A DNA stretch of 64,000 bases from an uncultured Actinomycetota bacterium (GTDB lineage: Bacteria; Actinomycetota; Actinomycetes; JAHEKZ01): contig CAVQYR010000001.1 in the NCBI GenBank assembly GCA_963718235.1, positions 320,001 to 384,000 on the forward strand, read 5' to 3'. The stretch's first letter is position 1, and every line of letters starts with the position of its first letter. The position numbers and the translations under genes were made by a program. Positions 2,735-59,825 of the stretch are shown piece after piece. The notes beneath the pieces were generated by a model. It did not search any database. It saw only the letters and a list, made by a program, of their open reading frames with translations, and had not been told where the DNA came from.

Positions 2735-3528
2735 CCGTGCAGAGCAGCGTGCAGATCAGCCGCGACACCGGGGTCACCACCTTGATCCTGGACCGCCCCG
2801 AGCGCCGCAACGCCTTGAACCTCGCGATGGTGCAGGAGCTGCGGGCGGCCCTGGACGCAGCCGCGTCCGACGACTCGGTTCGGGTCGTCGTCCTGACGGG
2901 AGCCGGCAGCACGTTCTGCTCAGGCGCCGACCTCACCGATGCCGCCGAAGGCGGTGCCGAGTCCTTCGCAGGAGGAGTGCCCGCCGCGTTCGCCGACCTG
3001 CTCGGTGCGATGGTCGACCATCCGAAGCCGATCATCGGCCGGGTGCAGGGTCACGTGGCCGGTGGAGGCATCGGCCTGGTCGCCGCGTGCGACCTGGCGG
3101 CGGCCGTCGACGGGGCCTGGTTCGCCTTCGCCGAGGTCCGGCTCGGGGTCGTGCCCGCCGTCATCGCTCCCTACGTCCTGCGCAAGCTCGCACCGGCCGC
3201 AGCCTCGGAGCTGATGCTCACCGGTGAGCGGGTCAGCGCGGAGGTCGTGCGTGAGGCGGGGCTCGTGCAGCGCGTCGTGCGCAGCGAGTCCCTCGATGCC
3301 ACGGTGTTCGCCTGGGCCGCCCAGCTGCGCCGTGGTGGTCCCCAGGCGATGGCGGTCACCAAGCGGGTGCTCACCCGGGTCCCCACGATGGAGCGGGCCG
3401 AAGCACGCGCGTGGACGACCGCGGTGTCGGCCGCGGCGTTCGGGTCGGTGGAGGCACAGGAGGGCATCGCCGCCCATGCGGGACGTCGCGACCCGTCGTG
3501 GGCCGGCCCGGGGGCTACTGCGTCGTGA
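2731..3528 (+). CDS. Enoyl-CoA hydratase/isomerase (methylglutaconyl-CoA hydratase-like)
   Basis: LDRPERRNALN, FCSGADL, GGGIGLVAACD, EVRLG. ATGA overlap with the upstream stop. Confidence 0.9.
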   Translation: MTVQSSVQISRDTGVTTLILDRPERRNALNLAMVQELRAALDAAASDDSVRVVVLTGAGSTFCSGADLTDAAEGGAESFAGGVPAAFADLLGAMVDHPKPIIGRVQGHVAGGGIGLVAACDLAAAVDGAWFAFAEVRLGVVPAVIAPYVLRKLAPAAASELMLTGERVSAEVVREAGLVQRVVRSESLDATVFAWAAQLRRGGPQAMAVTKRVLTRVPTMERAEARAWTTAVSAAAFGSVEAQEGIAAHAGRRDPSWAGPGATAS

Positions 3529-4060
3529 GGTCGTCGGGGGAGTCGACGTCGACCAGCGAGCCGGTCGGCGCCGCGACCGTCACAGGGTCGAGCCCCTCGT
3601 AGAGCGTCATCATCGCGGCGCCCTGGACCTGGCCGAGGGCGGCGAGCCGACGCATGAGGTGCCGTCGGGGCCACAGGGCGGTGAGCGGCTGGGTACGCCC
3701 GTCGTCGTCGGCCATGACGACGACCCGCTCGGCGTCGCCCGCGCACTCGATCAGTGCCGCGACCGCCTGAGCGACGCGGGGCATGTCGCCGGCCAGGATC
3801 ACGATCCGGTCGGCGCTGGTGCACGCGAGTCCGGCGGCCAGCCCGGCCACCGGGCCACCGCCTGCGGGCACCTCTCGGGTCCAGGTGACGGGCCGGGCCG
3901 TCGTCCGCTGCGGACCGACGACGACGGTGCGTTGCGCGTGGGCGACCGCGTCCAGGGCGTGGTCGAGCAGGGGCCGCCCCTCCAGGGCGTGGGCGAGCTT
4001 GTCCGAGCCGAACCTGCGGGAGTCGCCGCCGGCCAGCACGATGGCGTCGAAGGCGATCAC
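3515..4060 (-). CDS. mobA: Molybdenum cofactor guanylyltransferase (MobA-like NTP transferase)
   Basis: AIVLAGGDSRRFGSDK, GGGPVAGL, LAGDMP, DVDSPDDL. GTG start inferred. Confidence 0.8.
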   Translation of the reverse strand: MIAFDAIVLAGGDSRRFGSDKLAHALEGRPLLDHALDAVAHAQRTVVVGPQRTTARPVTWTREVPAGGGPVAGLAAGLACTSADRIVILAGDMPRVAQAVAALIECAGDAERVVVMADDDGRTQPLTALWPRRHLMRRLAALGQVQGAAMMTLYEGLDPVTVAAPTGSLVDVDSPDDLTTQ

Positions 4061-6178: not shown

Positions 6179-7141
6179 TGGGGTGGGGGTGGCGGCGAGG
6201 CGGGCGAAGCCCTCGTCGAGGGTGACCCGGGGGGACCACGCCAGCGCCTCGCGGGTGCGTCGCTGGTCGAACCAGTGGGCAGTGGACAGCTGCTCGGCCA
6301 GGAACCGGGTCATCGGGGGCTCGTCGTCGCGTCCCGCCAGCGACCACGACGACTCGACGAGCGCGCCGCCGGACCGGGCGACCGCGCTTGGCACCGACCG
6401 GGTCGGAGCAGGCGCGCCGCACGCCAGGCAGATGCGGGACAACAGCTCGCACACGGTGCGCGGCTGGCCGTTGGTCACCACGAACGCCTCCCCGTGGACG
6501 ACGTCGGCCCGGTCGAGCGCGGACACGACGGCGTCGACGGCGTTGTCGACGTACGTGCTGTCGATCAGTGCGGTGCCCCCGTCGACCAGGACCAGCCGCC
6601 CTCGGTGGGCGCGCTCGACGATCCGCGCGACGAGCTGGGTGTCACCTGGCCCCCACACGAGGTGCGGGCGTACCGCCACCACGGCGAAGCCGTCGGCGTC
6701 CGCGGCGAGGGCTGCCTGCTCGGCCAGGGCCTTGCTCCTCGCGTAGTGACCACGCGCACGCTCCGGGTCGGCCGGTGCGGCCCCCACCCCGACGAGGGGC
6801 TCACCGGCGTGGGCCACCGAGGGCGACGACACCTGGACGAACCGGTTGGCCCCGGCGGCCCGCGCTGCGGCCAGCAGGGCCCGCGTGCCCTGCACGTTGA
6901 CCCGCTCGAACTCCGCCCACGGCCCGGTCACGGACACCTTGGCGGCGAGGTGCACGACGGCGTCCTGCCCCGCCACCGCATCGGCGACCACGGCGGGGTC
7001 TGCAACGTCGCCCAGGACCTCGGCCAGCCCCGAGCCGCTCGGGCGCCGCTGCAGGACGGTGACGGTGTCTCCTCGGTCGGCCAGGGACCGGGCCACCGCC
7101 CCTCCGAGCATGCCGCTGGCCCCGGTGACGAGCACCCTCAT
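6170..7141 (-). CDS. oleD: OleD-type NAD(P)-dependent epimerase/3-beta-HSD family reductase
   Basis: MRVLVTGASGMLG, HLAAKV, YARSK, RPHLVWGPGD. ATGA-coupled to oleBC. Confidence 0.85.
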   Translation of the reverse strand: MRVLVTGASGMLGGAVARSLADRGDTVTVLQRRPSGSGLAEVLGDVADPAVVADAVAGQDAVVHLAAKVSVTGPWAEFERVNVQGTRALLAAARAAGANRFVQVSSPSVAHAGEPLVGVGAAPADPERARGHYARSKALAEQAALAADADGFAVVAVRPHLVWGPGDTQLVARIVERAHRGRLVLVDGGTALIDSTYVDNAVDAVVSALDRADVVHGEAFVVTNGQPRTVCELLSRICLACGAPAPTRSVPSAVARSGGALVESSWSLAGRDDEPPMTRFLAEQLSTAHWFDQRRTREALAWSPRVTLDEGFARLAATPTPPS

Positions 7142-49185: not shown

Positions 49186-50175
49186 CTACAACGGTGGGTA
49201 CTGTCTGCCAGTCGGCTCGTCGCGCTCGTAGACCTGCGAGGGCGGGCCCACGATGAGCGGGTCGGGGGTGCTGACGATGTCGAAGTCCTTGTCGCGGTAG
49301 TCGAACAAGGACAGCACCCACCGCATCGCCTCGAGCCGTCCCCGCTTCTTGTCATTGCTGCGAACGACGGTCCAAGGCGCCCAGTCGGTGTTCGTGTAGT
49401 AGAACATCGCCTCCTTGGCGTCGGAGTAGGCGTCCCACTTGTCAAGGGAGGCGAGGTCTGTGGGGCTGAGCTTCCACTGCCGCACCGGATCTATTCGTCG
49501 GATCGTGAACCGAGTGATCTGCTCCTTGCGGCTGACCGAGAACCAGAGCTTCACGATGGTCGTCCCCGAGCGGACGAGCATGCGTTCGAACTCAGGGACC
49601 TGGCGCAGGAATTCCCAGTACTCCTCGTCTGAGCAGAATCCCATCACTCGCTCGACGACGGCGCGGTTGTACCACGACCGGTCGAACAGCACCATCTCTC
49701 CAGCGGCCGGCAAGTGTTGGACGTAGCGCTGGAAGTACCACTGAGCCCGCTCGCGCTCGGTCGGCTTCAACAGCGCGACCACGTTGGCGCCGCGGGGGTT
49801 GAGGTGTTCCATGAATCGCTTGATGGTTCCGCCCTTGCCGGCCGCATCGCGCCCCTCGAAGAGGATCAGCACCCGCTGACCGGTCTTCCTCACCCAGGTC
49901 TGAAGCTTGAGCAGCTCGATCTGCAACAACCGCTTGTCGACCTCGTACTGCCAACGACGCATCCGGACGTCGTAGGGGTATCCCTCGCGCCACGTGTCCA
50001 CTGGCGTTCCGCCCGGCCCGAGCAGCACTGGGTCGTCGATCTCGTCCCAGGTTCCTTCGACGGCAAGTCCACGGTCCTGCAGCTCCTCGTCGGACAGCTC
50101 CTTAAGCGACGTGATGATGTCGGCCAGATCGACGACGGCTTCGATGTCGACCTCGTGTATGCGCGCGTCTGACAT
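49186..50175 (-). CDS. ppk2: Polyphosphate kinase 2
   Basis: FEGRDAAGKGG, HLNPRG, WYFQRY, FDRSWYNR, WKLSPTD. Confidence 0.95.
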   Translation of the reverse strand: MSDARIHEVDIEAVVDLADIITSLKELSDEELQDRGLAVEGTWDEIDDPVLLGPGGTPVDTWREGYPYDVRMRRWQYEVDKRLLQIELLKLQTWVRKTGQRVLILFEGRDAAGKGGTIKRFMEHLNPRGANVVALLKPTERERAQWYFQRYVQHLPAAGEMVLFDRSWYNRAVVERVMGFCSDEEYWEFLRQVPEFERMLVRSGTTIVKLWFSVSRKEQITRFTIRRIDPVRQWKLSPTDLASLDKWDAYSDAKEAMFYYTNTDWAPWTVVRSNDKKRGRLEAMRWVLSLFDYRDKDFDIVSTPDPLIVGPPSQVYERDEPTGRQYPPL

Positions 50176-50473
50176 GTCGCCTCCTGGCAACAAGCATGCA
50201 CCTCGACGGCTGGGCCGATCCGGACGAGCCCAAAGCGTCGCTGTCCGTTCACTCTCGTCCCTGGACGATGACTCCGTCGCATCAGAAGGAGCCCGTCGTG
50301 GTGCAGGCACGGCGGCGGTCCCCCGGGGTGCGGAGGTGACGGCACTCGGGCGAACGGTGTCGACCATCCCAGCTCAGGTCCCTGTGAGTGTCATGACAGG
50401 CCTTGCCAAGCAGGGTCGGCTACGGCCAGAGTGGCCCAAGCAACAGGGTGCCTGTCCGAGCGAGGAGGCCACC

Positions 50474-51058
50474 GTGCCTGATCCCTACGAAGGCGCACAT
50501 GGGTTCGTCTTCCTGCACGACGACGACATGAGGGCACCAGCAGAGGTGATCGGCGAGCTGCGCCAGAACCTCAGAACTCCGGACGACCCCGACCGGCCAG
50601 TATTCTTTGCCGCGACCTTCCAAGGTGACTTCGCGGGGTTTGCTCACTTCGCTGCCGACGACCTCGAAGGTCTGGCGGACCTCACCGGATCGCTCCTGTT
50701 CGACGCGGGTATCCACTCGGACTACGCGGTGGAGGGTGTGTACTACAAGAACGCACGGTCGGTACCCATGGCCCCGAAGCGCAAGAGCCCTCGCTTCTGC
50801 GCGATCTGCCGAGTTCGCACGAGCGAGACACCCGCGGTCGTCCTCGACGCGATCGCCCGGGAGTTCGATGAGAGTGAGCCGTTCGTCGGAGGGTCACGGG
50901 TGATCGGGACCTTCCAGCTGCTCATCGAGCTGGGCAGTGACGACGAACCGAGTCTCGAGGTTGCGATCGAACGGCTGCTCGGTGTCTCGGGGGTGACCAC
51001 CGCCCAGGTCGGAACGACCGACACCGGACGCAGAGAAGACGAAGGGCGCAGTGCCTGA
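50474..51058 (+). CDS. Hypothetical protein, possibly tandem Lrp/AsnC-type (RAM) ligand-binding domains without an HTH
   Basis: GAGGAGG RBS before GTG 50474, 8-nt overlap with the cyclase start, two similar segments (FQGDFAGFAHFAADDLEGL / VIGTFQLLIELGSDDEPSL). Confidence 0.6.
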   Translation: MPDPYEGAHGFVFLHDDDMRAPAEVIGELRQNLRTPDDPDRPVFFAATFQGDFAGFAHFAADDLEGLADLTGSLLFDAGIHSDYAVEGVYYKNARSVPMAPKRKSPRFCAICRVRTSETPAVVLDAIAREFDESEPFVGGSRVIGTFQLLIELGSDDEPSLEVAIERLLGVSGVTTAQVGTTDTGRREDEGRSA

Positions 51059-54000
51059 GACACAGGCGGAACGAAAGCTCGCCACCGTCCTGTTCGTCGA
51101 CCTGACCGGCTTCACGGCCCTGGCGGCGTCGTTGGATCCCGAGGACGTCTTCTCCCTCATCAGACCGACCATGCTGGACCTCAAGCAGATCGCCGAGGCG
51201 CACGGGGCAACCGTCCCCGAGATCCAGGGTGACGGCTTTATGGCCCTGTTCGGTGTGCCCACCACCCACGAGGACGACGCGGAGCGGGCAGTGCGCGCGG
51301 CGCTGGCCTGCCGCGACCGCATCCGGGTGTTGAACGAGGGCCGCTCCGGGCTCACGATCCCCGAGACGCACTCGGGCGTGAACTCAGGTGAGGTGATGGT
51401 TGGCTCGTCCACGACGGACTTCGGCCTGACCGTGATCGGCGACGTGGTCAACACCGCATCGCGGCTGGCCGATCTCGCGCCCGCGGGAACAGTGATCGTC
51501 GAGGAGGGGACCTGGCAGCGGACCAAGCACGCCATCGGGTACGGGCCACGGCGTACCTTCCGGGCCAAGGGCAAGGCAGAGCCGGTGGCCGCGTTCGAGG
51601 CGCGGGCTCCGCGGACGGCGATGCCGGTCGGTCGGCGGACGCACCCAGGATCGGACTTCGTGGACCGGGTGGCCGAGCGCGAGGAGCTGGCGCAGGAGCT
51701 TCGCACGGTGAGCCGCGAGGGACGGCCGCGGGTCGTCATCGTGGCCGCCGAGCCCGGGGCGGGGAAGACGAGACTCGCCTCGGAGTTCACCCGCCGAAAC
51801 CCCGACCTTCTCGTTCTGGCCGGTCGAGCCACCGCCTACGGGCAGAGCACGCCCGTCTCGCCGCTCGGCGCCGCGGTGGCGGAGATCGTCGGGGTCCCGC
51901 CCGGAACGTCGGCGAAGGCAGGGCTGCGCCGCATCCGTGCCCTCGCCGACCGGATCGCGAGCGGCGGCGAGCGTCGTTCCCTGGTCCGAGGCATGTCCCT
52001 GCTGCTGGGGATCGGGATCGGGGACGAGGACGCAGCCCGCTCGCGGGGCACCGAGGAGGCCATCGCGGCCGCCCGAACCGTGCTCGAGGCGCTCGCCCGC
52101 GAGCGACCGATCGTCGTCCTGCTCGACGACCTGCAGTGGGCCGACCCGGCCGTGGTGGAGGCACTCCGCAGTGTCGGGGACCAGCCGTGGGTCGGTCCGA
52201 TCCTGTTCCTGGGCCTCACCCGTCCGGAATCGCTCCCCAGCCTGACGAACGTTCGAAGGATCGAGCTCGGGGCCATCCCCGGCCCGTTCATGGACGAGCT
52301 CGCCTCCCTCACCCTCGGCCAGGGGTCGGTCACTCCGGAGCTCACCGCCGTCATCTCTCGTGCGGGCGGCAACCCGCTGTTCCTCGAGGAGAGCATCAGC
52401 ATGCTGATGGAGTCGGGCGCGCTGGCCCTGACCGGCTCGGAGTGGGTCGTCGTCGATCCGGTTCAGCTGAGCCGGGTTCCGACGACTGTTCGTGCCGTCG
52501 CCGCCGCTCGACTGGACGGGTTGCCTGCCGACGAGAAGCGGTTGCTCCAGTGCGCTGCGGTCTCAGGCGAGATCACCTGGGACAGACTCCTCGACCGGCT
52601 GGCGCCGGAGATCGACGTGGGCGCGGCTCTGCGACGCCTCGTCGACCGAGACCTGCTGCGTCGACGCCGCGGTTCGCACGTGAGGGGGGCGACCGAGCTC
52701 GTCTTCAAGCATGCGCTGATTCGCGATGTCTCCTACAGCTCGCTGCCCCGTGAGGAACGCGTTCACCTGCACCTGGACGTCGCCGAATGGCTCGTCCAGG
52801 GCGCCCGGCCGTCGCGGGAGCCGGTCGACCAGCTTGCCCAGCACTACTGGCAGGCCTGGAGCCTGGCGACGGCGTCGACGGTCTCTGTTGCACCTGCTGG
52901 CCTGGCTCGGTCGGCGTCGCTGTTCGTCGGGCGCTGGGCCGACGAGACGATGCGCTACCAAGCCCTGGCGGCCGAGTCGCTGTACTCCCGCGCGATCGCC
53001 GTGGATCGGGCCGGCGGGGACGAAGTCGAGCCGGAGCTGTGCACCCGGCATGCGATCGGGCACGCCGAGTGTCTGATCGAGCTGGGCCGCCACGCGGAGG
53101 CCAAGGTCGCCGCCGTCCGGGCGCTCGAGCTCGCCGGAACGCTGGGCGACGAGCGTCTGGAGGCCCGAGCCCTCGTCGCCCTGGGCCGGGTGGAGTCCGA
53201 CGTGGGCGACGATGCCGAAGCTCGCGTGCTGCTCGAGCGGGCACTGGTCGCCTTCCAGACGGTCGGCGACGTGTCCGGGGTGGCGTGGGCCACCCACAGG
53301 CTGTCAGAGCTGTCCGCCCGGACTGACTACGCCGAGAGTCTGGAGTACCTGCGGGTGGCTCACCGGCTGTTCGTCGAGTCCGGCGACCACTGGGGGCGGG
53401 TGATCTCAGCCCAGGACCTGGCCTACATGTTGAGCATGGTGGGAGGCGCGGAGTTCCGCCGCTGGTACCGCGAGTGTGAGCGGCTGGCTGAGGGTGAAGG
53501 CGACCTGCGGTCGCGGGCTGCGTTGCTGCGGACGCTCGGTTACCACCAGTACTACTGCGGAGAGCACGAGGCGGCCATCGCGACCATGCACGAGGCCGGA
53601 CCGGTCGCCCGAGCCGCCGGCGACCGCTATGCGCTGGCGGATGCCTTGCTGATCGAGGCCCTGGCTGCGGCGGCCGTGAGTCCGCCCAAGGAAGCATGGG
53701 TCGCTGCGGAGGCGGTCGTGACGTTCGGAGGTGACATCCAGTCGGACCGGTTGAAGGGCCTCGGACTGGCTGCTGAGGGCCGGGCGGCCTTGCGCGGTGG
53801 TGACCCGCGCCGCGCGACCCGCTGCCTCACTGCCTGCCGACGCACTCTCGGTCGGCTGGGCGCCCGCGCTGAGCTGGCCGAGGCGGACCTGATCACAGCC
53901 GAGGTGATGCTCGACCGAGGGGCGTGGGGGAGGGTCCGCGAGCCCGCGATGAACGGCGCCCGAGAAGCCGTGGCGAACTCGATGACCCTCGTCGAGCCCA

Positions 54001-54485
54001 TCGGGCCGCTCCTGGTCGGCCGGGCGGCGCTCGGCGCCGGTGACCTCGCGCAGGCGAGCACGGTGCTGACCCAGGCAGTCGCGCTGGCCCGCGGCTCCGG
54101 GGCGAGTGGAACCCTCGCCGTGGCGCGTGCCGCGCGAGACCAGGCACTGCTCCTGTCGGCCCGAAAACCTCGTCCCCGTCGACTTCGAGGGCCAGGAGTC
54201 GTGGCCCAGGCGATAGAGGAGGAGAACCACGGTCTGGTGTGCCTGTGGGAGCAGCGGTACGAGGACGCTGCCGTGTCGTTGCAGCGCGCCGTTGACCACT
54301 GGGGGCTCCTCGGCTCGACGGTGTGGCTGGCCCGCGCCCTGGTGATGCTCGGCGACGCGCGTCGACGGGCAGGCGATCGATCGGGGTCGGCGTCCGCGCG
54401 ATCACGCGCCCGACGGGTGCTCGCGCGGCTGGACACACCCGATGCCGAGCGTCAGGACGTGATGGATGTCCTGAGCCGTTGGTGA
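51051..54485 (+). CDS. Class III nucleotide cyclase + STAND/AAA ATPase + TPR-like repeats
   Basis: TVLFVDLTGFT, QGDGFMALFG, GDVVNTASRL; EPGAGKTRL, LLDDLQWAD, GGNPLFLEE, FKHALIRD; long Ala/Leu/Arg-rich helical repeats. Confidence 0.92.
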   Translation: MPETQAERKLATVLFVDLTGFTALAASLDPEDVFSLIRPTMLDLKQIAEAHGATVPEIQGDGFMALFGVPTTHEDDAERAVRAALACRDRIRVLNEGRSGLTIPETHSGVNSGEVMVGSSTTDFGLTVIGDVVNTASRLADLAPAGTVIVEEGTWQRTKHAIGYGPRRTFRAKGKAEPVAAFEARAPRTAMPVGRRTHPGSDFVDRVAEREELAQELRTVSREGRPRVVIVAAEPGAGKTRLASEFTRRNPDLLVLAGRATAYGQSTPVSPLGAAVAEIVGVPPGTSAKAGLRRIRALADRIASGGERRSLVRGMSLLLGIGIGDEDAARSRGTEEAIAAARTVLEALARERPIVVLLDDLQWADPAVVEALRSVGDQPWVGPILFLGLTRPESLPSLTNVRRIELGAIPGPFMDELASLTLGQGSVTPELTAVISRAGGNPLFLEESISMLMESGALALTGSEWVVVDPVQLSRVPTTVRAVAAARLDGLPADEKRLLQCAAVSGEITWDRLLDRLAPEIDVGAALRRLVDRDLLRRRRGSHVRGATELVFKHALIRDVSYSSLPREERVHLHLDVAEWLVQGARPSREPVDQLAQHYWQAWSLATASTVSVAPAGLARSASLFVGRWADETMRYQALAAESLYSRAIAVDRAGGDEVEPELCTRHAIGHAECLIELGRHAEAKVAAVRALELAGTLGDERLEARALVALGRVESDVGDDAEARVLLERALVAFQTVGDVSGVAWATHRLSELSARTDYAESLEYLRVAHRLFVESGDHWGRVISAQDLAYMLSMVGGAEFRRWYRECERLAEGEGDLRSRAALLRTLGYHQYYCGEHEAAIATMHEAGPVARAAGDRYALADALLIEALAAAAVSPPKEAWVAAEAVVTFGGDIQSDRLKGLGLAAEGRAALRGGDPRRATRCLTACRRTLGRLGARAELAEADLITAEVMLDRGAWGRVREPAMNGAREAVANSMTLVEPIGPLLVGRAALGAGDLAQASTVLTQAVALARGSGASGTLAVARAARDQALLLSARKPRPRRLRGPGVVAQAIEEENHGLVCLWEQRYEDAAVSLQRAVDHWGLLGSTVWLARALVMLGDARRRAGDRSGSASARSRARRVLARLDTPDAERQDVMDVLSRW

Positions 54486-54519
54486 CACCGACTGGGTGAG
54501 CGCGCAGACCTCGCTGCGG

Positions 54520-54700
54520 TCGCGGTCCCTCGGTGAAGCAACGGGATCGGCCCGGGCGACCCGGACGGCGAAACACCCAGGACGGGCGTTGTGCATGTGC
54601 ACGAAGTCGACCCGCGTGTCCAAGAACAGCCGGTCGAGCTCTGCTTCGAGCTTCGTGCCCTCGACGACCTCGGCGTCGGCCATCATGGCCGCGGCGTCTG
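54520..54700 (-). pseudogene. DUF1203 C-terminal fragment
   Basis: MMADAEVVEG...LF.DTRVDFVHMHNARPGCFAVRVAR. The N-terminal part is missing. Confidence 0.6.
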
Positions 54701-54951
54701 GGCGTCAATGCCACTCTCGCGGATCGCAGGCCGCGAGACCGGCGAGTTTCGGACCGGGCATGGGCGTGCCGACCGCTGGGGACGCAGCGCGGCGGGTGAG
54801 GTCAGGGCGGTCGGACTCCCAGCGGCACGTGTCGCACAGCTGACAGCCCCCCTGTCGCCCAGACGACAGACAGACCCTGGACAGGCGGTGCACACTGAGT
54901 ACGTCAGAACGGCCCGGTCCCCCCGGGACCACTCCAACGGAGGAGCGCACC

Positions 54952-55104
54952 ATGTCAGACACCACCCAGCCCGACGCCACCCAGCCCACACCCGAAGACG
55001 ACACCGAAGGCTCGATCCTGCGGCACCCGAAGGCACAGGTCGAGGACGAGACGGCCGTCGAGGACGACACCCAAGGTCACATCGCGAGGGGCCACGGCAA
55101 GTAG
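54952..55104 (+). CDS. 50-aa acidic/basic repeat peptide (putative precursor), not in the ORF track
   Basis: GGAGGAG RBS 6 nt before ATG and GC3-rich codons. MSDTTQPDATQPTPEDDTEGSILRHPKAQVEDETAVEDDTQGHIARGHGK. Confidence 0.75.
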   Translation: MSDTTQPDATQPTPEDDTEGSILRHPKAQVEDETAVEDDTQGHIARGHGK

Positions 55105-55191
55105 ATCGTCGAGGACACCGACGCGAAGGCGTCCACGTACTCAGACCTGCGGGGACTGCTGCCGGGTTCGGAAATCCGGCGACGAGTGATC

Positions 55192-55239
55192 AACACCGAG
55201 CCTGGCCCGGATCACACGATCCGGGCCAGGCTCGGTGTT
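55192..55239 (+). terminator. Perfect 22-bp stem hairpin after the peptide gene
   Basis: AACACCGAGCCTGGCCCGGATC-ACAC-GATCCGGGCCAGGCTCGGTGTT, with no strong U-tract. Confidence 0.65.
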
Positions 55240-55384
55240 CGCATGACGTCGACGGCCATGAGTGGGCGCCCGGGAGGTACGGGTGGAGCAGTGCACGGCG
55301 CACCCATCGACCCCTGGCCCACCCTTGACCCGACGCGGGGCCCGCACCCATGATCCGCTGCAGGTTCCGACGAGGGAGCGAGCG

Positions 55385-57058
55385 GTGAGCGATCGATCGT
55401 CCGGAGGGTTTCGCTCAGCCCTGGCCCGGGCGGACTTCCGCAACCTGCTGTCCGGACTCGTCGTCTCGGGCACCGGCGACTGGATGTACAACGTCGCCCT
55501 GTTCGTGTACGTGCTGGACCGGACCGGTTCGCCGGGCTGGGTGGCCGCTGTCAGTGCGGTCAAGCTGCTGCCGGTCCTCCTCTTCAGCAGCGTCGGCGGT
55601 GTGGTCGCCGATCGGTACGACCGCCGGCGAGTGATGCTGGTCTCCGACCTGATCCGGGCGTTCCTCATGGTGGCGCTTGCGCTGATGGTCGGCGTCGACG
55701 GACCCCTCGCGTTCCTGCTGTTGATCGTGGCGGGGAGCTCGCTGGTCGGTACTCCCTACTACCCCGCAGTTGGTGCGCTGACCCCGAGCATGGTCGACGA
55801 GGACGACCTCGCAGCCGCAAACGCACTCAACGGCGCCGTGGACAACATCACGATCACGCTCGGGCCGGCTCTGGGCTCGGTCCTGCTCCTGCTTGGCTCA
55901 CCCTCCACGGCGATCGCCCTGAACGCAGTCACGTTTCTGGTGTCGGCGGCGTTCGTCTGGCGCATCCGGGGTCCGGCTCCCGGCGATCCGGACGCGAGCT
56001 CGCAGACGCTTCGGAGCCGCCTGGCGGCCGGGCTTGGAGCGATGACGCGTTCGCCGGACATCATGCTGCTGGTGCTCGTCTCGCTGGGGTTCACGCTGAC
56101 CTTCGGTATGGAGATCGTGCTGTTCCCGCTCATTGCCGATGAGCTGCTCGGAACCGGTGCGCAAGGCCTGGGGTGGCTGCTCGGGGCGTCCGGGCTGGGT
56201 GGGGTGCTCGGTACCTACGTTGCTGGGCGTCTGGCCGGCCGGCCACGGACCGCGATCATCCTGGTCGGGTCGGCGCTCCTGACGGCGTTGCCCCTGCTGG
56301 CGCTCACCGTGATCAGCCAGCCCGTGGTCGCGTACGCGGTGCTCCTGGCCGAGGGAGTGGGGTTCGTCGTCGGCGACGTCATCGCTGTGACGACGATCCA
56401 GCGGGTTGCTCCCGGCGAGGTGGTGGGTCGCGTGCTCGGCCTGCTCGGCACCGTGTTCGTCGGGGGGATCCTCGTCGGCAACCTGGTCGCGGGTGTGGCC
56501 GTCGACGCGGTCGGACTGGAAGGGGCCATGGTCCTCGGCTCGGCGTGCCTGATCGTGAGCGGACTGGCCGCGCTGCCTCGCGCCCGTCGGCTGGACCGTC
56601 AGTCGGCCGAGAGCGCGGCTGCGGTCGCGGACCGCGTCGCGTTGCTCCGACGACTGCGCATCTTCGACGGAGCCTCCCAGGCGACTCTGGAGTCGGTAGC
56701 CGCCGCTGCGACGGACCTTCACGTCACGCCCGGCACCGTGGTTGTCCGCGAGGGCGACACCGGGGACGCCTTCTACGTGGTGAGGACCGGCAGCTTCATG
56801 GTCAGTCCGGTCGGCCGGACGCTCGGAGCGGACGACTACTTCGGTGAGATCGGAATCCTCGAACGGGTGCCCCGCACCGCCACCGTCACCTCCACGACCG
56901 ACGCCGACCTGTACCGGATCGAGGCCGATGCGTTCGTCGCGGCGATCAACGAGGCCCCGGCCGGCATGCTTCGCCTGGCGGACACCCTGGCCGGGCGACT
57001 GGCCCGCACCCACCCGTCCCGCCGCGCCACGTTCAGCGGGCGTGAGCCCAGCGAGTAG
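55385..57058 (+). CDS. MFS transporter (DHA3/MFS_3-like) fused to a C-terminal cyclic nucleotide-binding domain
   Basis: GGVVADRYDRRRVM MFS motif A, about 12 TMs, then VVREGDTGDAFYVV...YFGEIGIL..PRTATV. Confidence 0.9.
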   Translation: MSDRSSGGFRSALARADFRNLLSGLVVSGTGDWMYNVALFVYVLDRTGSPGWVAAVSAVKLLPVLLFSSVGGVVADRYDRRRVMLVSDLIRAFLMVALALMVGVDGPLAFLLLIVAGSSLVGTPYYPAVGALTPSMVDEDDLAAANALNGAVDNITITLGPALGSVLLLLGSPSTAIALNAVTFLVSAAFVWRIRGPAPGDPDASSQTLRSRLAAGLGAMTRSPDIMLLVLVSLGFTLTFGMEIVLFPLIADELLGTGAQGLGWLLGASGLGGVLGTYVAGRLAGRPRTAIILVGSALLTALPLLALTVISQPVVAYAVLLAEGVGFVVGDVIAVTTIQRVAPGEVVGRVLGLLGTVFVGGILVGNLVAGVAVDAVGLEGAMVLGSACLIVSGLAALPRARRLDRQSAESAAAVADRVALLRRLRIFDGASQATLESVAAAATDLHVTPGTVVVREGDTGDAFYVVRTGSFMVSPVGRTLGADDYFGEIGILERVPRTATVTSTTDADLYRIEADAFVAAINEAPAGMLRLADTLAGRLARTHPSRRATFSGREPSE

Positions 57059-57132
57059 CGCGAGACGGGTTCCCGACGGCGACCCGGCCGGATCCCATGC
57101 GTCCGGCCCCCGCCACCGCTAGCATCCGATCA

Positions 57133-57870
57133 ATGGACAGCAACGAGCTCGTCGCGCGGCTCGCGGACCTTGCCGGCGAGCTCGGGCCGGGGCTGGAACC
57201 CCCTGGGGCAACCGACCAGCTGCAGGACATCGTCGAGACCGTTCGGGACCTTCTGGGCTCTGCGGCGTGCTCGGTCGCCGCAGTCGACCGTGACGAGGGA
57301 ACCCTTGTGTTCGTTGCCGCCACCGGGGAGGGCGCGGACCGCGTGGTCGGCGCCCAGATGCCGCTGTCGAAGGGGATCGCGGGCTGGGTCGTCGCCTCGG
57401 GGCAGTCGCTCACTGTCTCGGACACGGCACAGGACTCCCGCTTCGCCGCCGACGTCGCCACCTCGACGGGGTACGTACCCACCTCGTTGCTGGCTGTGCC
57501 ACTCCACAGCGACGACGACGTGCTCGGCATTCTGGAGGTCCTCGACGCCACAGTCGAGCCGGACGCCGGCACCTCACGGCTGCTGGAGCTGTTGGCCCAG
57601 CAGGCCACGCTGACCCTGCAGACCCGCCGAGTCTTCGCCGACCTGGGCTTCGTCCTGCTGCAGGCCCTGAAGGGTGCGGATCAAGGTGGCGACCTGAGTG
57701 ATGCTCTCGACGCGGTGGTGACCGGCAGCAGTGGGTCGGTCAGGGAGCTGGCGAGGCTTGCCACGCTGTTCCAGTCCCTGGGTCGACTCGGCCCTGACGA
57801 ACGGTCTGCGGCGACGCGCATGCTGACGACGTTCGTCTCGTACGCGCAACAGGCGGCACCACAGCCGTGA
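57133..57870 (+). CDS. GAF domain protein with short helical C-terminus and no output domain
   Basis: LVFVAATG, GIAGWVVASGQSL, DSRF, SLLAVPL, LGILEVLD. Confidence 0.88.
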   Translation: MDSNELVARLADLAGELGPGLEPPGATDQLQDIVETVRDLLGSAACSVAAVDRDEGTLVFVAATGEGADRVVGAQMPLSKGIAGWVVASGQSLTVSDTAQDSRFAADVATSTGYVPTSLLAVPLHSDDDVLGILEVLDATVEPDAGTSRLLELLAQQATLTLQTRRVFADLGFVLLQALKGADQGGDLSDALDAVVTGSSGSVRELARLATLFQSLGRLGPDERSAATRMLTTFVSYAQQAAPQP

Positions 57871-58685
57871 AGCCCGCGTACACCTGGCAGTTCGACCCCC
57901 GCCACCTCGAGTCGGTGCCCGTCGACCTCCCGGTCGCGATCACCCCCGAGTGGGCGTGGGAGGGCAGCACTGGGGCCGGGGTCAAGGTCGCCATCGTCGA
58001 CAGCGGCGTCGACCCTGGGCACCGATGGGTCGGCTCGGTCGCCGGCGGAGTGGCCGTGGAGTACGACCCCGAGCTGGTTGCGCGGGTCCGGTTCGACGAG
58101 GGGCCCCACGAGGACCTGTTCGGGCACGGCACAGCATGCGCCGCGATCGTGCGCAAGACCGCTCCTGATGCGGAGATGTACAGCATCCGTGTGCTCGGCT
58201 CACGTCTGAGCGGCAAGGGCTTCGTCTTTGCGGCCGGTCTTCAGTGGGCCATCGAGCACGGTATGCAGGTCGTCAACCTGAGCCTGTCGACGCCGAGCCG
58301 GGCTCACTTCGCCGCGTTCCACCGTCTCGTCGACGAGGCGGCCCGTCGGCGGATCATGGTGGTGTCCGCCATGAACAACTGGCCCGGTCGCTCATACCCG
58401 TCGGAGTTCTCCGGGGTGTTCAGCGTCGCTGCCCACGAGGGCACCGACCCATACGCGTTCGACGTCAATCCGCGCCCTCCGGCCGAGTGGGGGGCTCCAG
58501 GGATCGACCTCGAGGTCGCGAGCCTGGGCGGGTCGACGATTCGGGCCACCGGCAACAGCTTCGCATCTCCGCACATGGCGGGACTGATCGCGAAGATCCT
58601 GGGCAAGCACCCCGACCTCACGGTCTTCCAGATGAAGGCGATCCTGCAGTCCCTGGCCCGTAACGCAGTCTCGGCGTCTGCCTAG
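57867..58685 (+). CDS. S8 family (subtilase) serine peptidase, no signal peptide
   Basis: VAIVDSG, GHGTACA, SAMNN, TGNSFASPH triad. GTGA-coupled to the GAF gene. Confidence 0.92.
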   Translation: MKPAYTWQFDPRHLESVPVDLPVAITPEWAWEGSTGAGVKVAIVDSGVDPGHRWVGSVAGGVAVEYDPELVARVRFDEGPHEDLFGHGTACAAIVRKTAPDAEMYSIRVLGSRLSGKGFVFAAGLQWAIEHGMQVVNLSLSTPSRAHFAAFHRLVDEAARRRIMVVSAMNNWPGRSYPSEFSGVFSVAAHEGTDPYAFDVNPRPPAEWGAPGIDLEVASLGGSTIRATGNSFASPHMAGLIAKILGKHPDLTVFQMKAILQSLARNAVSASA

Positions 58686-59371
58686 CCCCCAGCTCGGCGC
58701 TCCAACTGCGCGAAGTTCGTCACGGTCACATGTCGACCGTCGATGGTGATCCAGCCGCGCTCGGCAAAGCGGTGCAGCGCCTGGTTCAGGCTCTGCCGCG
58801 ACACCCCCACCATCTCGGCGAGCTCAGTCTGCGACAGAGGCAGGTCGACGGCGACGGGAGCTCCCTGGCCAGCGACCCGCTCTCGATCAGCCAGGCCGAC
58901 CAGCAGCTTCGCGACTCGTGCCTGCACGTCGAGGAACACCAGATCGCCGGTCTGCTCGGTGAGCCGACGGACCAGCGTGCCCAGAGACCGCAGCAGTCCA
59001 TCGACCAGTGCCGGCTCGTTGTGAAGTGCGTCGAGCAGGTCCTGGCGCCGGAGGGTGAACACGGTGGTGGGCTCCACCGCGACGGCCGACGTCGAGCGAG
59101 ACCCGCCGTCGACCAGGGACAGCTCGCCGAACGTCTCAGTCGGGCCGACCGTGGCCAACAGCATCTCGCGTCCGTCCGGTGACGCGATGGTGATCTTGAC
59201 CAGCCCCGAGACGACCAGGTACAGCGTGTCGCCCGGGTCCCCCTCGTGGAACAGGGTGTGACCGGCGGCGAACGACCGGCGAACGGCGCCGTCGTTGAGC
59301 CGCCGCAGGAACTTGGTGTCCAGACCGGCGAACAGCTCGGTCCCCGACAGTGGGACTTCGTTGGGTTCCAT
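58682..59371 (-). CDS. Crp/Fnr family transcriptional regulator
   Basis: LFHEGDPGD, FGELSLVDGGSRS, LSQTELAEMVGVSRQSLNQAL HTH. Confidence 0.93.
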   Translation of the reverse strand: MEPNEVPLSGTELFAGLDTKFLRRLNDGAVRRSFAAGHTLFHEGDPGDTLYLVVSGLVKITIASPDGREMLLATVGPTETFGELSLVDGGSRSTSAVAVEPTTVFTLRRQDLLDALHNEPALVDGLLRSLGTLVRRLTEQTGDLVFLDVQARVAKLLVGLADRERVAGQGAPVAVDLPLSQTELAEMVGVSRQSLNQALHRFAERGWITIDGRHVTVTNFAQLERRAGG

Positions 59372-59402: not shown

Positions 59403-59825
59403 CTAGCCGAGCTTCGCTTCAGAGGCGCGGATTGTCTCGCAGAGTCCGACCAGGATCTTGCGCGTCAGAGCCGGGTTGTCGTCGAGCAACGGCTGGAACT
59501 TCCAGGCGGGAAGGGACAGCGTGCGCATGGCTGACTCGGTCTTCACGGTCGCGCTTCGTGGTTTGCCGTCGATGACCGAGATCTCCCCGAAGTAGTCACC
59601 GGGCGCGAGAGTCCGGATCGTGCGAGCGCCTTGGCTGACTGTCGCCGTTCCGTCGAGGATCAGGTGGAAACCGACCGAACCCCCGCCCTCCTCGACGACC
59701 TCGTGGCCGGCTTGGTGCTCGACGGTGCGGGAGGCGCTCACGACCGCATTGAGCTCCTTGTCCGAGAGCCCTTCGAACAACGGCACCGACTTCAGCCGCT
59801 GGAGCAGGTCCTTGTCCGCCGCCAT
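59403..59825 (-). CDS. Stand-alone cyclic nucleotide-binding domain protein
   Basis: LKSVPLFEGLS, YFGEISVIDGKPRSATV. GGAGG RBS. Confidence 0.9.
   Translation of the reverse strand: MAADKDLLQRLKSVPLFEGLSDKELNAVVSASRTVEHQAGHEVVEEGGGSVGFHLILDGTATVSQGARTIRTLAPGDYFGEISVIDGKPRSATVKTESAMRTLSLPAWKFQPLLDDNPALTRKILVGLCETIRASEAKLG

Follow-up and report, generated by a model that had tools for sequence, protein, structure and literature searches.

A small repeat protein encoded beside a propeptide-less subtilisin and cyclic-nucleotide-binding proteins in Actinomycetota is a candidate multi-copy peptide precursor

Introduction

The yeast alpha-factor precursor consists of tandem peptide copies with acidic or Ala-rich spacers, from which the peptides are released by the S8-family protease Kex2, with copy numbers that differ from one species to another; kexin acts in the secretory pathway, where it cuts after dibasic sites. 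In the RRNPP systems of Firmicutes (Phr, PapR, NprX, and arbitrium), rapidly diversifying unmodified peptides of 5-8 amino acids (aa), released from small precursors in part by subtilisins, are paired with TPR-domain receptors; the precursors have Sec signal peptides and are processed extracellularly, the receptors are TPR-HTH or TPR-phosphatase proteins, and cyclic nucleotides are not involved. QhpE, a compact subtilisin without the usual pro-region, processes the QhpC subunit of quinohemoprotein amine dehydrogenase, a small ribosomal peptide, inside the cell. Subtilisin-cut multi-copy precursors occur in cyanobactin, fungal-pheromone, and some lanthipeptide systems; to our knowledge, none of these is coupled to cyclic-nucleotide signaling, and none is known from the widespread group of free-living Actinomycetes studied here. 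Here, we analyze a 64,000-nucleotide (nt) stretch of DNA from an uncultured Actinomycetota bacterium (contig CAVQYR010000001.1, positions 320,001 to 384,000; hereafter, the window) in which the open reading frame (ORF) at 54952-55104 encodes a 50-aa repeat protein upstream of genes for a major facilitator superfamily (MFS) transporter, a GAF-domain protein, a subtilisin-type S8 peptidase, and a CRP/FNR-family regulator. Our favored interpretation, held with moderate confidence, is that this protein is a multi-copy precursor cut at each motif by a cytoplasmic subtilisin under the control of cyclic nucleoside monophosphates (cNMP) into short, species-specific peptides.

The arrangement has much in common with the cyanobactin systems (PatE with PatA/PatG), in which a small precursor with several cassettes, each composed of a short recognition sequence and a hypervariable core, is combined with an S8 protease. 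In PMC10885120, PatA is listed as cutting after G(L/V)E(A/P)S, CylA after GDVQAE, LicP after NDVNPE, and AprE after GDMEAA. The PatA motif and the element proposed here, D(V/T)EG(H/S/Q), share a hydrophobic or beta-branched residue at P4 and Glu at P3. The cyanobactin parallel had been drawn in an initial annotation of the ORF, made from the sequence of the window; it holds for the logic of several cores and a subtilisin that cuts behind a short recognition sequence (PMC10885120), but not for membership. The S8 protein scored 31.7 bits against the PatA/PatG model TIGR03895, for which the cut-off is 421.05. Unlike cyanobactin loci, the cluster has a single S8 gene, the product of which is a bare BPN'-like domain with a GAF protein as partner; it lacks a PatG-type macrocyclase, the variable segments are not followed by an AYDG-type motif, the neighbors scanned include neither a heterocyclase nor another tailoring gene, and the hosts are Actinomycetes rather than cyanobacteria.

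The S8 leader peptidases of lanthipeptide pathways (LicP, CylA, ElxP, NisP, and AmyP) are sequence-specific and, according to PMC10885120, remove acidic hexapeptides with Asp-Val at P5-P4. The sequence D-D-V-E-G-H shares this D-V register. ElxP is described as cytoplasmic in the same source (PMC10885120) and, therefore, subtilisins of the RiPP type (RiPPs being peptides that are made by the ribosome and then modified) can be cytoplasmic. By contrast, LicP and CylA are secreted pre-pro-enzymes whereas the S8 protein here has neither signal nor propeptide, lanthipeptide precursors consist of a leader and a single core while the substrate here is a tandem array, and no lanthionine synthetase or modification enzyme is found among the neighbors. 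Compared with the pro-pheromones cut by Kex2, the repeat protein lacks a secretion signal and has an acidic conserved element, and its protease is a cytoplasmic enzyme that has a GAF protein of the cNMP type as partner. As in the RRNPP systems, a TPR protein is encoded in the cluster; however, this is a cyclase-STAND-TPR protein present in only 6/24 loci, and leaders without a secretion signal are combined with an S8 protein without signal peptide. The difference from QhpE lies in the absence of qhp genes and of a radical-SAM enzyme nearby, in an unrelated substrate, and in an S8 score below the cut-off. Thus, the locus follows the logic by which cyanobactins, lanthipeptides (through their proteases), and alpha-factor are processed, but it lacks defining features of each of these systems and belongs to none of them.

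Results

The 50-aa ORF is a real, conserved small gene

The initial annotation had described a 50-aa peptide with a strong GGAGGAG ribosome-binding site and two EDDT(E/Q)G cassettes, each with a basic tail, upstream of the transporter and protease genes. Re-examination bore this out: the translation of the ORF is exactly MSDTTQPDATQPTPEDDTEGSILRHPKAQVEDETAVEDDTQGHIARGHGK, both cassettes and their tails can be read in it, and the Shine-Dalgarno (SD) sequence as well as the MFS, GAF, and S8 genes lie where expected (Table 1). In the alignment with homologs, D16, D17, G20, and R24 of cassette 1 are invariant, as are D38, D39, G42, H43, and R46 of cassette 2; seven residues lead from the His of cassette 2 to the end of the protein. 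The precursor contains no Cys and few Ser/Thr in its variable parts. Its GC content by codon position is 0.69/0.45/0.86, and the third-position value (GC3) of the neighboring genes is 0.83-0.87; the frames overlapping the ORF on both strands have neither a coding-type GC pattern nor a Pfam match. At the DNA level, synonymous changes (GAA/GAG, GGC/GGT) and a single replacement of E by Q distinguish the two copies of the motif. The gene is single-copy in its own genome (3.17 Mb, two contigs), and the identical protein exists as a called but nameless entry in a public protein collection. Near-identical DNA (word shares 0.24-0.60) is present in eight runs (X1-X8) of freshwater sediment and freshwater metagenomes from four studies, and the runs with the highest shares may represent the sample of origin.

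Because spurious ORFs are common in high-GC DNA (144 ORFs of at least 30 aa in 14 kb), we considered that the frame might be open by chance or that the region might function only as RNA or as a regulatory spacer. One of four metatranscriptome runs tried on 54300-56300 (X16) gave pieces at 54760-54945, 55591-55623, and 55726-56035, each with 3-5 differences and a depth of about 5, which leave the 50-aa ORF itself uncovered; as contigs from an RNA library possibly holding DNA, these pieces are evidence neither for nor against transcription. Set against a chance frame are the coding-type GC pattern, the strong SD sequence, conservation of the protein with synonymous variation, 1167 homologous clusters (see below), conserved synteny, and the lack of any Rfam family at threshold, and we regard this explanation as effectively refuted. 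Moreover, chance cannot account for the cassettes, because homologous small ORFs next to orthologous protease genes contain the same motif.

The repeat proteins form a large family with a fixed motif and variable segments

A search of 60 relatives identified a clear homolog (E about 1e-5) in two genomes of the same family (G007 and G013) and a weaker one in a third genome (G002). All three homologs have three cassettes and a strong SD sequence; the cassettes read PEDDT(E/Q)G-(Q/H)VRRPL in G007 and G013 and DDDV(Q/E)GH-RLRHGG in G002, and the genes adjoin GAF, S8, and CRP orthologs in three different gene orders. A four-sequence profile detected 243 small proteins at E<=0.01 (90%-identity clusters), all of them "hypothetical" and none with a Pfam domain, while a 25-sequence profile detected 1167 clusters (50% identity) at E<=1e-3, of which 153 were at <=1e-10. 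No Pfam or NCBIfam model matches the family, and the cluster was not described in the literature found, the coverage of which did not extend to supplementary files and subscription journals.

Across 498 units from 137 proteins, the successive motif positions are D (77%), D (91%), V (51%) or T (44%), E (90%) or Q (9%), G (100%), and H (95%), followed by positions rich in R/K and then by a spacer of variable length rich in A, D, E, and G. This family logo agrees with the split proposed from the two copies in the window, which set an acidic conserved motif apart from a variable core. Family members contain 2-13 tandem copies with a period of mostly 13-25 residues, begin with a leader of 8-25 hydrophilic residues without a hydrophobic stretch, and in 98/137 cases end 3-7 residues after the last His. 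Units within one protein are near-identical, e.g. 12 copies of DDDVEGHKMKLPKA in genome G076, and the segment after the His varies not only across species (KMKLPKA, TRLNHGAA, VRRPL, and RLRHGG) but also within a genus (NRLHSAT vs QRLRASGAT in g124; KRE(L/F)(V/A)GAT vs HREPPGAT in g89). Fast divergence of the variable segments together with homogenized copies would be the pattern of signaling pherotypes or of competition peptides.

All 20 homologous peptide genes have a purine-rich SD sequence 5-9 nt before the start. Synonymous codons vary at the invariant residues (Gly uses four, Glu two, and Val three), and GC3 is above the locus GC in 19/19 homologous genes tested, which points to selection on the protein. 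We conclude that 54952-55104 is a real, conserved small gene.

Two kinds of unusual arrays were also observed. In three genomes, the array shifts reading frame part-way (L062, G205:C3, 9780-10400; L079, G309:C20, 6982-7503; L066, G295:C18, 9818-10141), which reflects either misassembly of the tandem repeats or a copy in decay. The longest array by a wide margin is a 460-codon open frame in L077 (G339:C4, 9124-10503, + strand) with many ETDDA(T/Q)GH-(S/N)AH(W/Y)GGADAER units; it adjoins a stand-alone cNMP-binding gene, and no S8 or GAF gene lies within 10 kb.

Repeat-protein genes lie beside orthologous GAF and S8 genes

To place the gene in its genomic context, 401 genomes were sampled from the class and up to 20 kb was fetched around every peptide match. 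The family profile matched 23/401 genomes. In 22 of these 23, a distance of 38-2763 nt separates a peptide gene from an S8 ortholog (48-77% identity) that has a GAF gene next to it, the gap being largest in the window because the MFS gene is inserted between the two. The initial annotation had staked its reading on the presence of similar small ORFs at homologous loci; ORFs with 2-12 cassettes are found beside the S8 orthologs in these 22 genomes, which supports the reading as a multi-core precursor that would be cleaved. Two genomes (G295 and G135) each have two peptide genes, only one of which adjoins the GAF-S8 pair. Conversely, S8 orthologs (E<=1e-50) are present in only 49/401 genomes, and a GAF gene adjoins the S8 gene in 42/42 S8-bearing loci examined. 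Among the 27 S8-positive genomes without a profile match, 20 were fetched (G021, G112, G130, G162, G209, G233, and G248 were left out); four of these loci contain clear cassette ORFs that had been missed by the genome search (G035, G309 with a frameshift, G383, and G221), a further one contains a weak candidate (G127), and in G014 the contig ends where relatives carry the peptide gene. A separate pattern search of genome contigs gave 175 matches, of which tblastn with the 50-aa query, a confirmation that is too strict for a short repeat protein, retained two (the G007 and G013 loci).

Over 24 loci, a CRP homolog (counted only if at least 180 residues aligned) is present in 20, an MFS-cNMP fusion in 10, a stand-alone cNMP-binding protein in eight (one of them the S8-less G339 locus), and a cyclase-STAND protein in six including the window. 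Based on these counts, the core of the cluster consists of the peptide, GAF, S8, and CRP genes. The link to a transporter made in the initial annotation applies to this locus but is not universal. The cluster is an accessory, patchily distributed trait: the S8 gene is present in only 5/19 genomes of the family, and the only other genome of the genus (G001, 99% complete, 370 contigs) has neither the peptide gene nor an S8 ortholog. Because the genes for the S8 protease, its GAF partner, and a CRP-type regulator nearly always accompany that of the repeat protein, the most likely fate of this protein is second-messenger-controlled cleavage into short peptides.

We also observed a distant S8 clade (43-47% identity) in genomes of 7-10 Mb (loci L091-L095 and L097 in G278, G380, G350, G083, G333, and G239), in which the GAF neighbor is kept in reversed order (S8 first) and a cyclase-STAND gene lies 1-5.5 kb from the pair. 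Scans of these six loci found no D-D-(V/T)-E-G-H ORF, and it is possible that this clade has a different substrate.

The S8 protease consists of a catalytic domain only

The 272-aa S8 protein scores 86.1 bits against PF00082 (cut-off 21.8) and aligns to residues 2-243 of mature subtilisin BPN' (phmmer, 7.6e-30). The catalytic residues D45 (DSG), H87 (HGT), and S231 (GNSFAxP) as well as the oxyanion residue N170 align to their BPN' counterparts and are invariant in 21 orthologs. Because the alignment covers the mature domain and because the 23 codons between the upstream stop and the GTG start contain no start codon, the protease has neither a signal peptide nor a propeptide. In Foldseek, the AlphaFold2 model (pLDDT 87.4) matches subtilisin BPN' variants (3e-18, TM 0.67); the best matches are headed by calcium-loop-deleted variants, a likeness that would suit a cytoplasmic enzyme. 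The best NCBIfam match is QhpE (NF049966; 2.9e-32), the score of which, 111.8 bits, is below the curated cut-off of 165. A complex prediction with GAF protein, S8 protein, and peptide, using alignments, gave a score of 0.01 against a mark of 0.32 and, with controls not run, counts neither way.

Operator-like palindromes are concentrated upstream of peptide genes

Two operator-like palindromes, TGTCGCACAGCTGACA and TGTCGCCCAGACGACA, lie upstream of the 50-aa gene (Table 1). They are the only two TGTC-N8-GACA sites in the window, and the pair recurs at identical distances from the peptide gene in G007 and G013. In 303 kb from 19 loci, 15/17 such sites lie <=200 nt upstream of peptide genes and one further site lies upstream of a GAF-S8 operon; the sites precede 12/20 peptide genes, with centers 76-116 nt before the start. 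The binomial P for this placement is about 1e-26, a value that is overstated because related genomes are not independent and that we count as a caveat to our interpretation. We take the spacing and half-sites of these palindromes to be of the CRP/FNR type, and the only CRP/FNR-type regulator near them is the cluster's own. In locus L065 (G241:C63), paralogous precursor genes at 3340-3531 (- strand) and 6611-6802 (+ strand) flank one cNMP-binding/GAF/S8/CRP block, and each has its own TGTC-N8-GACA site at the same distance; their variable segments are KREFAGAT vs KRELVGAT/KRALVGAA.

Downstream of the peptide gene, the sequence 55105-55262 folds with -89.4 kcal/mol (z -6.65; 0/200 shuffles as stable) and includes a perfect 22-bp stem (Table 1). 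A scan for intrinsic terminators found none, missing the hairpin because it lacks a T-run, and Rfam gave nothing above threshold (best 30.3 bits vs a gathering score of 50), all sub-threshold matches being on the hairpin. The hairpin is likely a terminator or attenuator between the peptide and MFS genes; a promoter-like site is located at 55325-55354, before the MFS gene.

The neighboring genes add a putative cyclic-nucleotide layer

The initial annotation had not included a cyclic-nucleotide layer, which comprises the GAF partner, the CRP gene with its operators, the cNMP-binding domains, and the cyclase (Table 1). The end of the GAF gene and the start of the S8 gene share 4 nt. Among known structures, the relatives closest to the GAF protein are GAF domains with proven cAMP/cGMP ligands: its nearest phmmer matches are CyaB2 (1ykd, 9.5e-16), PDE2A (5.6e-09), and PDE5/6/10, and its Foldseek matches include 1ykd (1.7e-11) and the Lcd1 GAF-cAMP complex (4.2e-10). 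In NCBIfam, the best matches of the MFS protein, all below cut-off, are an H+ antiporter and EntS. For the stand-alone cNMP-binding protein, homologs align only to residues ~136-278 of the long ORF. Homologs of the cyclase-STAND protein (25-35% identity) lie <=10 kb from the peptide gene in 5/23 other loci (L060, L063, L065, L068, and L075), and this protein is a candidate source of the cNMP signal that is optional in the cluster.

Table 1 Features of the locus, in window coordinates
Feature	Position	Strand	Description
PPK2 polyphosphate kinase gene	49186-50367	-	8e-100; borders the cluster
354-aa ORF	49994-51058	+	No Pfam match; overlaps the PPK2 gene and reaches the cyclase start
Class III nucleotide cyclase with AAA_16 (STAND-type) ATPase and TPR	51051-54485	+	Guanylate_cyc 2.6e-15, AAA_16 3.3e-17, TPR_12 6.8e-12
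94-aa ORF	54402-54686	-	Coding-type GC; overlaps the last 84 nt of the cyclase gene
Operator-like palindrome 1	54830-54845		CRP/FNR-type spacing; center 114 nt before ATG
Operator-like palindrome 2	54853-54868		23 bp after palindrome 1; center 92 nt before ATG
Shine-Dalgarno sequence GGAGGAG	54939-54945	+	6-nt spacer to ATG; direct reading
Candidate precursor peptide gene, 50 aa	54952-55104	+	Leader M1-P14, cassette 1, spacer, cassette 2, stop
Cassette 1	54994-55032	+	Putative recognition motif E15-D-D-T-E-G-S21, basic segment I22-L-R-H-P-K27
Acidic spacer A28-QVEDETA-V36	55033-55059	+	Translation
Cassette 2	55060-55101	+	Motif E37-D-D-T-Q-G-H43, C-terminal basic tail I44-A-R-G-H-G-K50
Hairpin, perfect 22-bp stem and 4-nt loop	55192-55239	+	88 nt after the peptide stop; direct reading
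MFS_3 (EntS-like) transporter with C-terminal cNMP-binding domain	55385-57058	+	MFS_3 2.3e-45, cNMP_binding 1.5e-15; likely start GTG 55385 after GAGGGAG, longest ORF from 55262
GAF-domain protein	57097-57870	+	Pfam GAF_2 4.6e-16; GAF residues ~38-155 and a helical part of ~100 residues at the C-terminus
Subtilisin-type S8 serine peptidase, 272 aa	57867-58685	+	Pfam Peptidase_S8 3.4e-24; catalytic domain only
CRP/FNR-family regulator	58682-59371	-	PF00027 cNMP_binding 4e-26, PF13545 HTH_Crp_2 1e-18; convergent with the S8 gene
Stand-alone cNMP-binding protein	59403-59825	-	cNMP_binding 1.3e-13; ~140 aa from an internal ATG, longest ORF runs to 60242

As stated in the initial annotation, tailoring enzymes are absent: no tailoring or modification enzyme is present among the nine neighboring proteins scanned, the domains of which are cyclase/AAA/TPR, MFS, cNMP-binding, GAF, S8, CRP, and carboxylesterase, with no family for 49994-51058. 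For this reason, unmodified peptides are the simplest reading. Between the cyclase gene and the peptide promoter, the 94-aa ORF matches only the C-terminal positions 72-116 of 116 of DUF1203 (8.2e-11) with its first 45 residues and looks like a truncated gene remnant.

The combination of a STAND NTPase fused to a cyclase with cNMP-binding proteins led us to consider a cNMP-based conflict or anti-phage module with a Pycsar-like logic, in which the STAND cyclase would sense infection, cNMP would activate the GAF-S8 pair and the cNMP-binding membrane protein, and cleavage of the repeat protein would free toxic cationic peptides or remove an antidote. The patchy distribution (S8 ortholog in 49/401 genomes, none in G001) and PADLOC matches at the domain level (PycC, 6.3e-12, for the cyclase domain; PycTIR, 1e-12 to 2.5e-9, for the cNMP-binding domains) would fit such a module. 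However, these matches cover generic domains only, with no effector domain and no TIR, and the peptide, GAF, and S8 proteins have no defense-system model beyond generic subtilase; moreover, most loci are without a cyclase, and a CRP regulator with operators before the peptide gene points to transcriptional signaling rather than to an immediate abortive response. We consider a defense function very unlikely.

Discussion

Starting from the observed placement of the operators, the linkage of the genes, and the identity of the domains, we propose the following working model for the processing of the repeat protein. A cyclic nucleotide from the adjacent cyclase-STAND-TPR protein or from another cyclase would bind the CRP-family regulator of the cluster, and the cNMP-bound regulator would act on the two TGTCG-N6-(T/C)GACA operators to switch on the precursor gene. 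The hairpin after the peptide gene may limit read-through so that a small transcript accumulates independently of the downstream genes. Without a signal peptide, the precursor would stay in the cytoplasm, where the propeptide-less subtilisin would cut every conserved motif, while the translationally coupled GAF protein of the cNMP type probably couples protease activity to the same nucleotide. The cut would most likely fall directly after the residue that follows the Gly, with P6-P1 being D-D-(V/T)-E-G-(H/S/Q); we prefer this site because characterized RiPP subtilisins cut after motifs of the same register. The released peptides would be short, basic, and species-specific and, in this bacterium, would begin ILRHPK... 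and IARGHGK. In this locus, the MFS-cNMP pump probably exports them, and its C-terminal cNMP-binding domain would gate export. We set aside an alternative in which a cut in front of Glu would leave X-G-H as an N-terminal metal site of the ATCUN type: some cassettes have Ser or Gln in place of the His, and the register with Val/Thr at P4 fits known subtilisin sites better.

Several observations speak against processing as we envisage it. Translation, cleavage, and export of the precursor are predictions from sequence. Only 33/160 proteins have a C-terminal tail identical to the beginning of one of their internal post-His segments, and the next residue varies; therefore, there is no consistent second cut site, and the acidic spacer may or may not be trimmed from the products. 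The replacement of the motif His by Ser in cassette 1 of the window and by Gln in G007 and G013 means that some variation at P1 must be tolerated. An S8 match is missing from one genome with a peptide gene (G339, 69% complete), and scans, among them a k-mer repeat scan that was swamped by high-GC noise, found no cassette ORF in 14/20 further S8-GAF loci, most of which belong to a more distant S8 clade (43-55% identity). Finally, the counts of MFS-cNMP fusions (10/24) and cyclase-STAND proteins (6/24) place export and a dedicated cyclase outside the core.

Some of these points would also fit a repeat protein that works intact. Small, disordered, acidic, and rich in His, it could serve the S8 protease as pseudosubstrate, inhibitor, or chaperone, bind metal through its repeated Asp/Glu/His, or act as a partner of the GAF or CRP protein. 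No second cut site would then be expected and an exporter could be absent from many loci; the motif, which is the most conserved part and includes a 95% conserved His with acidic flanks, could be a functional site or ligand; and the S8 protease, lacking the usual propeptide, may need a partner to fold or restrain it. Nevertheless, 2-13 copies, near-identical units, and fast divergence after the motif are the pattern of a multi-core precursor and not of a stoichiometric partner, and the proteins usually end 3-7 residues past the last motif, as expected of processing sites. An intact function is, therefore, possible but in our view unlikely, and we prefer the multi-copy precursor.

If the precursor is processed, a more far-reaching possibility, which we put forward only tentatively and consider doubtful, is a previously unrecognized, cNMP-wired peptide-pheromone system of Actinomycetota. 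Here, a cAMP/cGMP-gated cytoplasmic subtilisin would generate species-specific cationic peptides of 5-8 residues, a cNMP-gated MFS protein would release them, and, in loci that encode it, the cyclase-STAND protein would use its TPR domain to sense the returning peptide and produce more cNMP, with CRP acting on the TGTCG-N6-CGACA operators to close an autoinduction loop. In such a system, the divergence of the variable segments between congeners would define pherotypes.

Should the multi-copy precursor model hold, more than 1000 clusters of unnamed small proteins would gain a function, and the protease would be a natural intracellular subtilisin that is gated by a second messenger and recognizes a defined motif of six residues, a specificity of potential practical use. 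With a single precursor, a protease and its GAF partner, and a regulator that has a clear operator, the system is small and would be easy to reconstitute. Peptide communication or competition in uncultured freshwater and soil Actinomycetota would thereby become directly testable.

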